Virus record (IMG/VR): IMGVR_UViG_3300027974_001530
Strand: one strand, 5' to 3'
DNA length: 64,000 bases
From: a virus
Taxonomy: Duplodnaviria; Caudoviricetes
Shown here: piece after piece, positions 6,434 to 29,225 of the stretch
Layout: each line of letters opens with the position of its first letter
Numbering within the stretch: the stretch's first letter is position 1
The notes under the pieces: generated by a model
What the model saw: the letters and a program-made list of their open reading frames with translations, nothing else
Databases searched by the model: none
What the model was told of the DNA's origin: nothing
Made by a program: the position numbers and the translations under genes

Positions 6434-7291
6434 TTATCCAAATACCACTTCACCCATTACACAAAGTTGTAGGAATACATCGGCATCTCCGGCATCTCCT
6501 TCTTCTAACAGGATTCGTTCCCATATCTCAGGGTAATCTTTTTTTATAATAGGAATTGATTCCAATATTTTATCCATATCAATATAACCTAATTTTGTTT
6601 CTTCTAAATCACTATAATAACTTTTATCGTCTTTTAAATCACCAGTAATATCATAATCACCATCAATATAGTTACGTTTTACCTCCCTGTACTCCTCAAT
6701 ATCATAAACTTCAATATTACCACCTTGTAGGATATATTCACCAACGGCCTCTGATGTTGATTGTCCATAGGATCTTATATTTTTAGGTAAATCCATGTAA
6801 TACCAATAGTTTGATCCTCCTTCTAAGGCGGTAACAAATAAATCAATTAAATTATCCTTTGTTAAACTTTTTTTCAACGCCTCTTCTCGATATCTATTGT
6901 ATCTAAATGACCACCCAAGACCACCGGCACTATAGATATTCCAATCCCTTATTCTTTCTTTTGTTTTTTCAATATCGTGTTCAGAAAGATATTTTTTTAA
7001 ACGTTCAAGTTCTTTTTTTGCTGGTTCGACAATTTCTTTTTTTATGTGATCTAAAACATACTCATCTTTTATGTGTGAGGTGTCAAAATTTGAGTAATGT
7101 TCAACGTCTTTCTCCTTCTCTTTAATATTTTTTTTTAGATTTTCAAGATCTTCTAAAGCCTCTTTTTCTGCCAATTCCTCAACTTGACGCATTTCATCGG
7201 CAGTTAAACCATATTTATTAAGTTCTTCACTTTCATTTAAAAAATTACTTTTTAAAGTATTATATTGATCCTCACTTACTATTATTTTCAT
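6434..7291 (-). CDS. tagged hypothetical protein, coiled-coil N-half
   Basis: MKIIVSEDQ tag; ALEGGSNYW and DADVFLQLCVMGEVVFG segments. Confidence 0.85.
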   Translation of the reverse strand: MKIIVSEDQYNTLKSNFLNESEELNKYGLTADEMRQVEELAEKEALEDLENLKKNIKEKEKDVEHYSNFDTSHIKDEYVLDHIKKEIVEPAKKELERLKKYLSEHDIEKTKERIRDWNIYSAGGLGWSFRYNRYREEALKKSLTKDNLIDLFVTALEGGSNYWYYMDLPKNIRSYGQSTSEAVGEYILQGGNIEVYDIEEYREVKRNYIDGDYDITGDLKDDKSYYSDLEETKLGYIDMDKILESIPIIKKDYPEIWERILLEEGDAGDADVFLQLCVMGEVVFG

Positions 7292-24198: not shown

Positions 24199-26529
24199 TT
24201 AATATCTTTTTTTAATTTCAACAGTATGAACAATATCCAAATAAAAATCTTCAAGGTCTCTTTCACCTGATGTAATTTTATTAATAACCTCATCTCTACG
24301 ATAAGCGGTATTATCTACAATAAACTCAAGCATTTCTTCATCAGTAATATCTTCAGGTTTAACTGGTTCAGGAATACAATCGTGGTTTCTATCAAATAAA
24401 TCAACATCATCAAAATAAAAACCTGTTTCACCAACTATTTGTTCAAACTTTGGGATCATAGTATCTTCATACCATTCCTCTATTATGCTCGTCACAAAGT
24501 TTTTTCTTGCGTTAAAAATTCTCATTATCTTTTCTACTAATGTTTTTGTTATCAGTAATGAACCACTATAAAATTTACCGTCTTCGTAATAGTATATTGC
24601 GGTAATAACTTCTTTACCGTTAACACACCAATCCTCACGAAGATTACCATAGTTACGAGATTTTTTACCTATTTCTCTATTACCACCCTCAATATAATCA
24701 TCAAGAAATAATGTGATAACTTTTCTAAGACTATCTGTGGATTTAAGGTATCTTTGTCTTTGGTCTTCTTCCCTCAATACTTTTATTATGTTTTCTTTTA
24801 AATCTGTTCCCCCACCATCTAACTTATCAGTAAACCCCATAAGTTTATCAAATGCTGGATGTGACATTATTGGTTCTTTTTTCTTATCTTTCATCTGATT
24901 CCAAGTTGACGGTTTAACTTTCATATGGTTCTTAACAAGATATTTAATTTCATCAACATCCATTCCTTCAAATGATTCAATCCAATCTTTATATCTTTCA
25001 ACATAGTCCGTTGATTTATCTTCGTGTCCGTACGCCGTTGGTTGATTTGTTTTTGGATTTATTTTATATGTGTCTATCTTACCTAAGTCGTGAAATAATG
25101 CCGCCATTACCATGTTTGGATCATCAGGATAGTGATGGTAAGCTCGTTTAATAACAACAATAATATGTTTAAGAGTATTCCCTTCAGGATGCCATTCAGG
25201 ATTTTGTTTTGCCCCCCATTGTTTGAATAAAAGTTCTTTTAATTCCTTTGGTAAGTTCTTAATTAACTCCTGTGGTGTCGCATGAAGTTTTTCTTCCCTC
25301 AATACTCTTCTTATAGATTCTTGCATATTTCTTGGTTCAAATTTTTCTCTATTTTTCCAAATCTGTCCACCTTGATCTAATTGATTTCGTCCTTTTGTTT
25401 TTGAATTAACAATTGGAAGGCCAAAGTAGTCTGATATTTTTTGATATACTATTGTTGCAATTCCTTGTCCTCTATATTTTTCAGGAATAACAATATCTCC
25501 TACATATATTTCACCATCATTAATTACAATGTTCATTTGTCCAAGATCAACAACACCGTCTTCACTGGTAATATCTTGGTCGTCAACCATAATAATAATA
25601 TTTTGAATTTTACCAAAATGATTATACATATTCCGACCTAAACGAATTTGAACTCTATCTTCTTCAATTCTTGTTGATGGGTCTGAAAGTTTAAATGGGT
25701 TTCTTATGTTATTTTTATGTTCATCGGATTCCCACATTTCTCGTTTATTAATATTCTCCTGTTCTTTAATATTAAAAATAAAATGTATTCTCCATTTATT
25801 AATTATTCTATCGGAAATATTATACATAAAATCATCATAATCAATCCCTCCCCAAATACCATTAAACGTCAGATTTACATCAACTTCAAACATAGGAATT
25901 CTACTTATACCTTTTTTTATTTCTATATTTAGAATACTTATTTTATCTATAGTATCAACAACATCGCAACCATCAAACGATAACCAATCAGGGAAAGTAT
26001 CCGCATCAGGCACTTCACAAATATTTTTAATTTCATCAAGTGTTTGATCAACGATGTTTTGGAATGTCCCAATCATTGTTTTTTTATTTAACTTATTATC
26101 ATTAGTTGATTCCATTAATCCCCAATCCTTACCTGTACCTTCATGTTTTAATGTTATTGCATTTGCAGGTATGTTTTCAAATGTTACTATATGTTTTGAT
26201 CTTGATTCATAGTGTTTATCTTTATACCACTTAACATCAGGTATCATTTCAGTATTAATTTCCCATACATCGTCATCGTATGTGGAATCAAAAGACGCTC
26301 TTTTATTTGTTGAGTTGGTTGCAAAGATTGCTGGTATACATTTTTCACCGTAACCCGCATAAATTTTATAACATTCTCCAGCTCTTACTTTTAAACCTTC
26401 ATTTGTTATTTTATCTCTAACCTTTGGATTAGATTTATGTATAACAATTTTGTTTGGTATTATTTCTTTACCCGCAGGACTATATTCATCTTCCCTTAAT
26501 ATTCTTCTTATGGATTCCTGTAGGTTCAT
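24199..26529 (-). CDS. polyvalent protein: ART-like + unknown + GNAT + HD + unknown domains, separated by tag repeats
   Basis: IHKS...EGL (ART-like), YRGQGIA (GNAT), WHPEG...KH...ALFHDLGK (HD); tag at N-terminus and twice internally. Confidence 0.8.
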   Translation of the reverse strand: MNLQESIRRILREDEYSPAGKEIIPNKIVIHKSNPKVRDKITNEGLKVRAGECYKIYAGYGEKCIPAIFATNSTNKRASFDSTYDDDVWEINTEMIPDVKWYKDKHYESRSKHIVTFENIPANAITLKHEGTGKDWGLMESTNDNKLNKKTMIGTFQNIVDQTLDEIKNICEVPDADTFPDWLSFDGCDVVDTIDKISILNIEIKKGISRIPMFEVDVNLTFNGIWGGIDYDDFMYNISDRIINKWRIHFIFNIKEQENINKREMWESDEHKNNIRNPFKLSDPSTRIEEDRVQIRLGRNMYNHFGKIQNIIIMVDDQDITSEDGVVDLGQMNIVINDGEIYVGDIVIPEKYRGQGIATIVYQKISDYFGLPIVNSKTKGRNQLDQGGQIWKNREKFEPRNMQESIRRVLREEKLHATPQELIKNLPKELKELLFKQWGAKQNPEWHPEGNTLKHIIVVIKRAYHHYPDDPNMVMAALFHDLGKIDTYKINPKTNQPTAYGHEDKSTDYVERYKDWIESFEGMDVDEIKYLVKNHMKVKPSTWNQMKDKKKEPIMSHPAFDKLMGFTDKLDGGGTDLKENIIKVLREEDQRQRYLKSTDSLRKVITLFLDDYIEGGNREIGKKSRNYGNLREDWCVNGKEVITAIYYYEDGKFYSGSLLITKTLVEKIMRIFNARKNFVTSIIEEWYEDTMIPKFEQIVGETGFYFDDVDLFDRNHDCIPEPVKPEDITDEEMLEFIVDNTAYRRDEVINKITSGERDLEDFYLDIVHTVEIKKRY

Positions 26530-27926
26530 ATTTCCTCTTCTATTTTTTTTTGTTTAAGTGGTGGATCCAATAAAAACTTATTATTAATCCAATTTCTTAA
26601 TTCATTTTCAACAAAAAATTCTGGAACTTCGTTATCTTCAGGCATAGTTGACGCTAGTTCAGCAATGTATCTGGCAAATTTAACTTTATATTTATTATCC
26701 ATTAAGGTCATTAATCCATCGGATATAAAAAAAATTCTAGATAATGGATCAGATAAATTTAATTCACCTTCAGTTAAATCAAACATTTTCATTACCACCT
26801 TACCCCACCAAGTCTTATAACTTGTTGTTTCTTCTAAGGTTGGTCTTAAAACTTTATTAACCGCTCTAACAATTGAACCTGTAAAACCGGCAATTGCCAA
26901 TTGTGGAATAAACCAAGGTAATAATCGTATTGTTGCTTTAACACCTCCCTCACCTACGTGTTGAAATAATCTTCTGCTAGTCGCGGAATCAACTATAGCC
27001 TTTAATTGACCAAATGTTATTTTACCTTGAGAACTACAAAATTTTTCTGAATCACAAATGTTTTTTAAAGCATTTTTGTCGGGATTTGTTTCATTTAACC
27101 CAATCAATGATTGTGATCTTAATGTTTGTTCAGTTAAAGGATCAAAGTATCTACCTTCTAAGTCAATGTCTCTAACTTCAAGACCTGAGTTATCCTCGAA
27201 CCATTTTTTAAAGACAGGAATCCATTTATCTCCAAATAATAATGTTAACCCATTGTTTACCCATTTTGTGATCACTAAGGCATATAAATAATCATACCCA
27301 TCCCACTCACCAAGATAAGCGTAAGCAAAGAGATCGTTTATCTCAAAGTCATAACTCCCATGTTTATTTACATCATCCCTATAAAAATCATGTAATTCTG
27401 GACCCCAATTATAATCAGGATGATATTCTTCTTTTAAATATTGATATATAAATTCATTAAGATCTTCTCCATCAAAATTTAATATCTTTATTAATCTTTC
27501 TACACTACCAACCGCCTTTGCCGTTTTTTTAATTCCTATAGTACGAATCATTCGGGACAAATTATCTTGTATTGTTTCTTCCCTCAGTATTTTTATTACT
27601 GATTCATTTATACCATATTTTCTTTTTATTAAGTCGTATCTTTCTTCTATTCTTTCATCATAATATTTTCTAAGAACATAAAAAACATCATCATACCATT
27701 GTAACTCATTTGGGAGGGTATATACCAATATATTGTGTATTCCGTCTATGGTCATTGATAATATGGTATTTCTAAATGTGACCAATGGTACAATACTACC
27801 ACTTTCTTTAAGATTTATTGAACATTTATTTGAAATCGTATCTAAACACTCGGTAAATTCCATTTCTAAATACTCAGGACTTACTCTACGTAAAATTAGA
27901 TTTAATGTTTTATCGTTTATGTTCAT
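26526..27926 (-). CDS. multi-module protein (RR module plus two further modules)
   Basis: Start reassigned to 27926; internal INESVIKILREE and LTEQ...LNE junctions. Confidence 0.8.
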   Translation of the reverse strand: MNINDKTLNLILRRVSPEYLEMEFTECLDTISNKCSINLKESGSIVPLVTFRNTILSMTIDGIHNILVYTLPNELQWYDDVFYVLRKYYDERIEERYDLIKRKYGINESVIKILREETIQDNLSRMIRTIGIKKTAKAVGSVERLIKILNFDGEDLNEFIYQYLKEEYHPDYNWGPELHDFYRDDVNKHGSYDFEINDLFAYAYLGEWDGYDYLYALVITKWVNNGLTLLFGDKWIPVFKKWFEDNSGLEVRDIDLEGRYFDPLTEQTLRSQSLIGLNETNPDKNALKNICDSEKFCSSQGKITFGQLKAIVDSATSRRLFQHVGEGGVKATIRLLPWFIPQLAIAGFTGSIVRAVNKVLRPTLEETTSYKTWWGKVVMKMFDLTEGELNLSDPLSRIFFISDGLMTLMDNKYKVKFARYIAELASTMPEDNEVPEFFVENELRNWINNKFLLDPPLKQKKIEEEI

Positions 27927-27985
27927 ATTAATAAATACGACCATAAGATAAAACTGACTATTTTATAATTAACATAGTTGTTGTA

Positions 27986-28775: not shown

Positions 28776-29225
28776 TTAAGATTCTTCTATCTGTTCTGAA
28801 TCTAACACTACCGTTGTATTTCTACCGGCAAATGCTGGTTCGTAAGCAGCAACTGATTTAAATGGAAAAAATTTGTTCATTTCATCACGTAAAGTACCTA
28901 TAATCCAAGATTGCATATTACTGGCCATAAGATTTGTTTTAAAATATATTTTAATACGTACTTTATCCGGTCTATTTCTATTAACCTCAAGAAAAGATAT
29001 TTCAACATCATCAAATTCCACAAAATTAATAAAGTTTTTAACTAACATTTCTTGGGTTTCAATATCGGTAACATCCAAATTTAATATTTTTACAACATTT
29101 TTAAATCCTCCAACAACACTAGATACAAAATGAATACCTTTAGTTTCAAATAAATTTCTAACACTCTTTTGAATATCGGTATCTTCTTCCCTTAATATTT
29201 TTAATATTTTTTGATTGTCAAACAT
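28776..29225 (-). CDS. tagged hypothetical protein
   Basis: ILKILREE tag; VGGFKNV shared with 32646..33143. Confidence 0.8.
   Translation of the reverse strand: MFDNQKILKILREEDTDIQKSVRNLFETKGIHFVSSVVGGFKNVVKILNLDVTDIETQEMLVKNFINFVEFDDVEISFLEVNRNRPDKVRIKIYFKTNLMASNMQSWIIGTLRDEMNKFFPFKSVAAYEPAFAGRNTTVVLDSEQIEES

Follow-up and report, generated by a model that had tools for sequence, protein, structure and literature searches.

A five-module mosaic protein joined by a recurrent tag in an uncultured T4-like jumbo phage: a candidate capsid-targeted polyprotein

Introduction

In bacteriophage T4, the prohead protease gp21 cuts after L/I-X-E and the internal head proteins carry a capsid-targeting sequence (CTS) of 10-19 residues, in which targeting depends on residues 4 and 7 and processing on residues 8 and 10; cuts are made at both ends of Alt, and the core proteins are broken into pieces (PMC9026906). 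Apart from the CTS, which is conserved, the T4 internal proteins are diverse (PMC3012670). The present text concerns a DNA stretch of 64,000 nucleotides (hereafter the window, meaning the whole stretch analysed) from the IMG/VR virus record IMGVR_UViG_3300027974_001530 (Duplodnaviria; Caudoviricetes), and more precisely a gene on its minus strand encoding a protein of 776 amino acids (aa) (P0001), in which a short amphipathic tag stands at the N-terminus and recurs between unrelated domains.

This locus resembles the T4 proteins IPI-III and Alt in several respects: (i) a short amphipathic N-terminal leader ending in (L/I)-x-E is found on otherwise unrelated proteins, (ii) in the tag, as in the T4 CTS, hydrophobic positions spaced by 3-4 residues precede an L-x-E, (iii) relatives that carry these modules encode a protease of gp21 type and a capsid protein of gp23 type, and an ADP-ribosyltransferase (ART)-fold domain is among the putative cargo, as in Alt, and (iv) the cargo genes differ between related phages (PMC3012670, PMC9026906). 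It differs in that T4 has about four such proteins, each encoded by a single gene, whereas dozens of leader-bearing open reading frames (ORFs) are present here per genome region, and in that the tag is also internal, joining unrelated modules. The T4 CTS reads MKTYQEFIAE, and the sequence of the tag is unrelated to it.

Head-packaged ARTs have been proposed to be widespread (PMC9503650). Polyvalent proteins, which have been proposed to process themselves through their own zincin-like MPTase domain, also combine unrelated effector-type domains (ART, HD, acetyltransferase-like) in one chain, and delivery alongside the DNA has been predicted for them (PMC5512222). By contrast, a Pfam scan of P0001 found no peptidase, LPD or MPTase domain, and the repeated tag fits a head protease acting in trans instead. 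In phiKZ and SPN3US (gp175/gp245), a gp21 homolog cleaves many proteins of the head interior, some of them from large paralog families, on the C-terminal side of Glu at a short motif, but the propeptides are long (often >100 aa) with a (S/A/G)-x-E motif (PMC5694885), and neither a repeated universal tag nor an enzyme polyprotein is described there. Finally, short conserved sequences, the PeSLs, flank variable genes of T4-type phages and are shuffling sites in hyperplastic regions (PMC2839356, PMC4122927); PeSLs are intergenic promoter/stem-loops that swap whole genes, whereas the unit described here is translated in frame, and proteins are fused or split. The finding is classed here as a variation on T4 CTS cargo and on polyvalent proteins.

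Modular architecture

P0001 is a mosaic of five independent modules that are delimited by tags and shuffled by recombination. From the N-terminus, these are an ART-fold domain (module 1), an alpha/beta domain (module 2), a GNAT-like domain (module 3), an HD domain (module 4) and an alpha+beta domain (module 5), all in one polypeptide (Table 1). A preliminary description, made from the letters of the DNA, had reported a polyvalent, modular ORF of 776 aa with the tag at its N-terminus and twice internally; translation of the minus strand confirmed the ORF, the tag coordinates agree, and the polyvalent and modular character of the chain stands.

An exhaustive HMMER search of 1.84 billion representatives yielded 1,092 relatives with E<=1e-3, including 138 with E<=1e-30; the best 150 were analysed. 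None of these 150 spans the whole chain, and the edges of homology fall at aa 1-14, 132-149, 265-288, 401-420 and 575-590. Domain edges match the tags both by these homology breakpoints and in two AlphaFold2 models. Since the edges coincide with the tags, the mismatch between domain boundaries and tag positions that was to count against the first interpretation was not found. Short junctions (LMES, IRES, INEN and the like) correspond to the first half of the tag; indeed, the weaker LMES and MWES junctions noticed earlier are present, within GLMES (aa 137-141) and EMWES (aa 264-268), as L-x-E-S half-tags.

The same modules are found in other arrangements, their order being free in the representative set: P0002 is built as tag-HD-tag-ART, P0037 has module 2 followed by module 1, and P0044 has module 1 followed by two copies of module 2. 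In IMG/VR relatives, module 5 occurs alone, behind leader B, in a gene of about 200 aa (L008-L012; leader types in Table 1) or fused behind another module (L013-L015), the HD module occurs alone in a 196-aa gene with leader C (L005), and module 1 is either enclosed by other modules, in the 642-aa protein of L007, or fused behind yet another module (L004). At least one internal A-type tag is present in 51 of 146 relatives.

The nearest record, IMGVR_UViG_3300042868_008818 (G001; L001:3-1835, minus strand), is 93-97% identical and lacks modules 3-4. Its join, MWESNEYKNNIIKVLREED, lies in register within the tag codons, at a 7-nucleotide (nt) microhomology (AACATAA), and real substitutions distinguish its flanks from those of both copies in the window. 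On the left, the indel relative to G001 breaks at junction 2. Furthermore, the G001 ortholog opens with a cyanophycin-synthase-like N-domain (PF18921, E 1.7e-44), after which no ATP-grasp or ligase part is present; an internal tag and module 1 follow, the tag being internal in G001 because the PF18921 domain precedes it. In the sequences compared, the joins and breaks between modules are placed within the tag. The preliminary description had recognised a modular chain with tags at its boundaries and had overlooked the tag DNA as a recombination site for the modules.

Two further arrangements were observed. The standalone HD gene (L005:5971-6561) carries a tag-like remnant, EIVKEEIQRIKNLM, followed by a stop and then a strong terminator hairpin, and looks as if it had been excised from a fusion within the next tag. 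In L004, from position 6855 onwards, the ORF with modules 1 and 2 ends at the very point where the next ORF opens, with a separate tag (MKELIRKILKED...); L004 thus shows in split form a boundary fused in the window. The L004 chain diverges after MWE (YARTLKNAR...), possibly through a frameshift.

Sequence conservation of the tag

Among the 150 relatives, 98 strict copies of the tag were counted (46 N-terminal and 52 internal), with the consensus (M)NLQESIRRILREE; its recurrence is not a matter of chance. The tag is a 13-14-aa amphipathic unit present in up to three copies per chain in the relatives counted, and its DNA pattern was found in 86 stretches on about 65 IMG/VR contigs. The consensus holds two [LI]-x-E sites, LQE/S and LRE/E, and the first tag of P0001 (MNLQESIRRILRE) likewise contains LQE/S and LRE/D. 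LQExIRxxLREE follows FEPRN in 10 of the 13 aligned module-3 homologs that read on past FEPRN. As it is used N-terminally alongside its internal use, the tag is more than a linker. Variation sits at exposed positions (Q/K, S/N/H/T, R/K), while L3, I7, I/V10, L11 and both Glu are fixed. This substitution pattern, which appears to be that of an amphipathic helix used for docking, indicates that the protein is under constraint, because the hydrophobic face and the two Glu are kept while the exposed positions vary.

The module 5 family carries leaders A, B or C interchangeably, and all three share [ILV][ILV]-x-E-E. A [LIVMF]-x-E site precedes the five module cores, within 12 residues, in 145 of 165 cases, whereas 26% of 12-mers drawn at random from these proteins contain one, a comparison of mutually related sequences that is not a p-value.

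At the codon level, ATA encodes Ile in 14 of 17 copies at one position and in 12 of 17 at the other (where the remainder encode Val), compared with a background of 41%, and AGG encodes Arg in 8 of 9 copies at the last Arg/Lys position, compared with 10%; the rare codons TCC, CTA and AAC recur in tags across different genomes. Codon identity of the tags between genomes (0.71) lies within the range of the modules (0.60-0.85). These patterns are read here as probable traces of frequent exchange or conversion between tag copies together with selection on the peptide. The tag strings were not found in the literature searched. A secretion signal was considered and rejected from the sequence, as the tag carries charges and is amphipathic rather than hydrophobic.

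Identity of the modules

AlphaFold2 models were made for aa 1-280 (45-sequence alignment) and aa 576-776, which cover modules 1, 2 and 5; modelling was confined to these parts because the whole-chain MAFFT alignment placed fragments from unrelated modules in the same columns and was unusable. In the first model (mean pLDDT 70.7), the tag helix (aa 3-15) is of low confidence, the core at aa 19-129 is confident, a second domain covers aa 149-265, and pLDDT is below 50 at aa 137-145 and from aa 268. In the second (pLDDT 84), a tag helix is followed by a disordered linker and a compact domain.

The closest known systems for module 1 are the RNA 2'-phosphotransferase KptA/Tpt1, whose NAD-binding ART lobe can be overlaid on it, and the DarT (DUF4433) ADP-ribosyltransferases. 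Indeed, KptA/Tpt1 was matched by Foldseek in the PDB (E 1.7e-4, probability 1.0), the top AFDB matches over query residues 16-130 were DUF4433, RNA 2'-phosphotransferase and RHS toxin ends, and VIA-align superposed module 1 on residues 83-180 only of KptA (Z 10.8, root-mean-square deviation 2.1 A, 89 aa, 19% identity); classical ART toxins (Scabin, TreX, pertussis S1, pierisin) gave Z 6-7.4. Sequence and profile searches of the PDB with modules 1-2 matched no solved ART at the sequence level. Tpt1/KptA enzymes are two-lobed, with most of the catalytic Arg-His-Arg-Arg tetrad on the N-lobe; module 1, of about 120 aa, lacks the N-terminal RNA-binding lobe of Tpt1 and so the two-lobed build. Because only the NAD lobe aligns and there is no match at the sequence level, module 1 is, on this model, an ART-fold domain and not a Tpt1 enzyme. 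The ART-like domain announced in the preliminary description therefore holds at the level of the fold and for the NAD lobe only.

For module 2, structural matches are generic (RbfA, CzrB C-domain, OsmC; Z ~6). Module 3 scores 16.7-19.2 bits against Pfam PF00583, under the cut-off of 20.7 (E 0.0016-0.009), with 4 of 14 homologs matching at E<=0.01, and its language-model features match small viral GNAT clusters in the Atlas (score 0.95); the YRGQGIA motif previously pointed out is present, and module 3 is a probable GNAT domain. Module 4 exceeds the cut-off of Pfam HD (PF01966; 25.8 bits against 22, E 1.4e-5) with both WHPEG..LKH and LFHDLGK present, its nearest NCBIfam model is PRK10885, a multifunctional CCA addition/repair protein (E 2.1e-7), and its PHROG is a tRNA nucleotidyltransferase, in line with the HD domain of CCA-adding type seen earlier. 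Searches of the PDB by sequence and profile with modules 3 and 4 gave nothing useful. The fold of module 5 has no clear match in the PDB or AFDB, its Atlas matches are viral hypothetical clusters only, and an Atlas feature search gave it no match. In a tblastn search of 50,697 phage records, only the HD domain found matches, to CCA enzymes, and modules 1, 2, 3 and 5 found none in any cultured phage. The domain list thus gains modules 2 and 5, which had been missed beside the ART, GNAT and HD domains already named.

The HD module is also encoded, at 48-58% identity, in giant metagenomic proteins: P0053 (3,941 aa), P0105 (3,213 aa) and P0097 (2,340 aa). Since it adjoins Pfam LPD23, a polyvalent-protein domain, in P0053 and P0105, and since P0053 also has DUF3293, these two are, judging by their domains, bona fide large polyvalent proteins; a Pfam scan of P0097 found no family. 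As to activities, RNA-end repair or nucleic-acid modification is speculation, suggested by the KptA-like ART fold, the CCA-repair-type HD domain and an RNA ligase encoded elsewhere in the window.

Genomic context

The gene belongs to an uncultured T4-like jumbo phage. The window has about 29% G+C and carries almost all of its genes on the minus strand. The 776-aa product is found unchanged on 7 public contigs from independent assemblies, including contigs of 91 kb and >200 kb. The ATG of its ORF overlaps the stop of the upstream ORF (ATGA); in G001, the C-terminal half of this upstream ORF is swapped for an unrelated module after the common ...EQTLRSQ.

Table 1. Features of the 776-aa ORF and of its surroundings in the window
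Feature	Position (nt)	Strand	Basis or remarks
Whole ORF P0001, 776 aa, five modules joined by tags	24199..26529	(-)	no internal stop; stop codon 24199-24201
Tag 1, aa 1-14, MNLQESIRRILRED	26488..26529	(-)	modelled low-confidence helix outside domain
Module 1, aa 16-135, ADP-ribosyltransferase-fold domain like KptA/Tpt1 NAD-binding C-lobe	26125..26484	(-)	structure comparison
Junction 1, aa 136-146, GLMES at aa 137-141 = half-tag L-x-E-S	26092..26124	(-)	pLDDT <50 at aa 137-145; homology ends aa 132-149
Module 2, aa 147-262, alpha/beta domain, no recognisable function	25744..26091	(-)	AlphaFold2 model
Junction 2, aa 263-287, EMWES (aa 264-268) + decayed tag DEHKNNIR + linker	25669..25743	(-)	pLDDT <50 at aa 268-280
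Module 3, aa 288-400, small GNAT-like domain, motif A YRGQGIA	25330..25668	(-)	sub-cut-off Pfam + Atlas features
Tag 2, aa 401-414, NMQESIRRVLREEK	25288..25329	(-)	motif scan + homolog alignment
Module 4, aa 415-575, HD phosphohydrolase of CCA-adding/repair type	24805..25287	(-)	Pfam, NCBIfam, PHROG
Tag 3, aa 576-588, DLKENIIKVLREE	24766..24804	(-)	low-confidence helix + linker in model; right breakpoint of module 3-4 indel
Module 5, aa 589-776, confidently folded alpha+beta domain, no recognisable function	24202..24765	(-)	model pLDDT 84
Upstream co-oriented ORF, 472 or 466 aa, same operon, itself mosaic	26526..27944	(-)	internal tag INESVIKILREE / YGINESVIKILREETIQ, nt ~27579-27617
TATTTAT motif just upstream of ATG at 27926, heading two-gene operon	27931..27937	(-)	motif scan
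Four leader types in window: A MNLQESIRRILREE; B MKIIITExQ; C MNLQEQISKIRSMM; D MKKIIRLTESDLARIVRRVIRE			

A six-frame scan gave minus-strand tag-like matches at 29225, 27617 (internal), 33149, 22370, 21596, 14856, 12451 and 2948, three of these being the other leader type and a few probably chance. About 35 ORFs on the minus strand at 1-42 kb start with one of the four leader types, and leaders are almost absent at 42-64 kb (thymidylate synthase, glutamine-synthetase-like, UvrC-like, RNA ligase). Past the first base of the window and downstream of it, to about 17 kb, L026:10502-17244 encodes Peptidase_M23, NlpC/P60 and FKBP genes and an 820-aa protein with a CHU_C (type IX secretion system-type, T9SS) C-terminal domain, followed by several large ORFs without a Pfam match.

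Link to T4-type head genes

A Peptidase_S77 (E ~1e-23) and a Gp23-type capsid protein (E ~1e-64) are encoded on related module-bearing contigs, both being present in G003, G005 and G006. The prohead protease, the only head protein searched there, was found in all five complete tag-bearing genomes (294-322 kb). The protease of G003 retains the LNHP and SSRG motifs of gp21, and the T4 gp23 maturation site LTE/A aligns with INE/A in the G003 capsid protein. The RNA ligase of the window is 97% identical to that of G001 and 76% identical to that of G002, which is the same phage as G003. Judged by motif, all junction types share [LIVMF]-x-E, the site of the T4 prohead protease, and the L/I-x-E specificity expected of the lineage's protease would fit every junction.

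TATTTAT lies 20-30 nt 5' of capsid, protease and scaffold genes in relatives (L017, L021, L016). In the window, it precedes 26 ORFs, of which 22 are in the leader-rich 1-42 kb (e.g. starts 24135, 22370, 12478), and a fuller motif, (A/T)TATTTAT(T/A), is found upstream of many operon-first ORFs, often directly after a terminator-like GGGGTTTTTT. TATTTAT is a candidate late promoter, which hints at late co-expression with the head genes.

Tag-like strings were also seen near head genes. A 194-aa ORF directly upstream of the protease in G003 (L017:5-589), roughly in the place of T4 genes 67/68, contains FLNES and TLKESIKNL, and the scaffold N-terminus contains NLEES and LVKES.

Interpretation

P0001 is proposed to be a capsid-targeted cargo polyprotein that is cut in trans at its tags in the prohead; packaging and cleavage are the steps that we infer, and the proposal is given an even chance. 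The preliminary description had suggested likewise that the chain is packaged whole and cut by the head protease into separate effectors, a reading that is supported in part. The tag would act like the T4 CTS, its hydrophobic face (L3, I7, I10, L11) docking the chain to the prohead core, and the Glu of [L/I]-x-E would be the P1 residue for a gp21-type prohead protease. This protease would cut the chain at every tag, and the separate effectors would exit the head with the DNA. As the same products would be obtained from single or fused modules, fusion and fission at tags would cost little, which could explain why modules are shuffled freely.

Several observations weigh against this proposal. 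No capsid, protease or scaffold gene was found from -29.5 kb, reached by walking a 91-kb public contig, to +64 kb, the walk having revealed lysis-type, large unannotated and tRNA-region genes; because the phage's own head genes were not reached, the link to the protease goes through relatives with 76-97% identity in shared genes. The gap between TATTTAT and ATG is 4 nt at this operon, far shorter than at the head genes. The [LI]-x-E motif is short, and module cores show no depletion of it (ratio 0.99, a value that is uninformative as the sequences are related to each other). About 35 leader ORFs in the window alone would make a large cargo list, although SPN3US packages >50 proteins in its head, among them a paralog family of 20 members (PMC5694885). 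Lastly, the tag codons are unusually uniform, including the rare ATA, AGG, TCC and CTA, which also fits a role at the DNA level.

The chain could instead remain uncleaved, as a multidomain polyvalent protein whose modules would be beads on a string in the cell or the virion and whose tags would be helical spacers and recombination points. This is rather unlikely, although the ORF is continuous and identical on the 7 contigs, polyvalent proteins of 2-15 domains are known (PMC5512222) and Pfam finds no peptidase domain in P0001. Indeed, half of the tag copies are at the extreme N-terminus, many of them on single-module proteins, for which a spacer would serve no purpose; leaders of unrelated types have converged on [ILV]-x-E-E, and the order of modules is free, so that there is no conserved cooperation between domains. 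That the fused ORF is an assembly chimera, with reads mis-joined at the repeated tag, is extremely unlikely: the tags do form near-identical repeats, 30-45 nt long, at a single locus, but numerous other architectures with several tags were found, the sequences flanking the G001 junction carry substitutions relative to both window copies, and an assembly artefact was rejected because the same 776-aa product occurs on 7 independent contigs.

The uniformity of the codons bears on another explanation, in which the tag would mainly be a cassette boundary at the DNA or RNA level, an in-frame counterpart of PeSLs that favours shuffling or translation starts, the peptide having no function and the internal copies being relics of fusion. 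Near-fixed codons across phage genomes, the microhomology join within the tag in G001 and the documented modular shuffling by PeSLs (PMC2839356, PMC4122927) would all agree with it, but it is considered distinctly unlikely, since the variation at exposed helix positions with a fixed hydrophobic face and fixed Glu is a protein-level pattern, internal tags are conserved at least as well as the enzyme cores that they flank, short junctions retain only x-E-S and not the DNA repeat, and the codon identity of tags between genomes does not leave the module range.

The proposal of a cargo polyprotein can be extended to a tag that is three things in one, namely a packaging signal and a protease site in the peptide and, in its 42-nt coding sequence, an in-frame recombination site. 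This extension is put forward tentatively, as possible if doubtful. Dozens of module families would then be shuffled among hundreds of ORFs in a clade of ~300-kb freshwater T4-like phages, fusions would make new effector combinations that the head protease would resolve after translation, and any module landing behind a tag would automatically be packaged and injected.

Conclusions

If the cargo reading is correct, the small internal-protein system of T4 would have been expanded in this clade into a large combinatorial arsenal of injected enzymes, and polyvalent proteins would have a second processing route, in which a universal tag is cut in trans by the head protease and no built-in peptidase is needed. 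The tag would also be a simple sequence marker by which the injected proteins of uncultured jumbo phages could be catalogued from metagenomes, and a portable signal of natural origin with which large capsids could be loaded with foreign proteins. Even without cleavage, the in-frame, tag-mediated shuffling of domains clearly exemplifies how phage accessory proteins are assembled.

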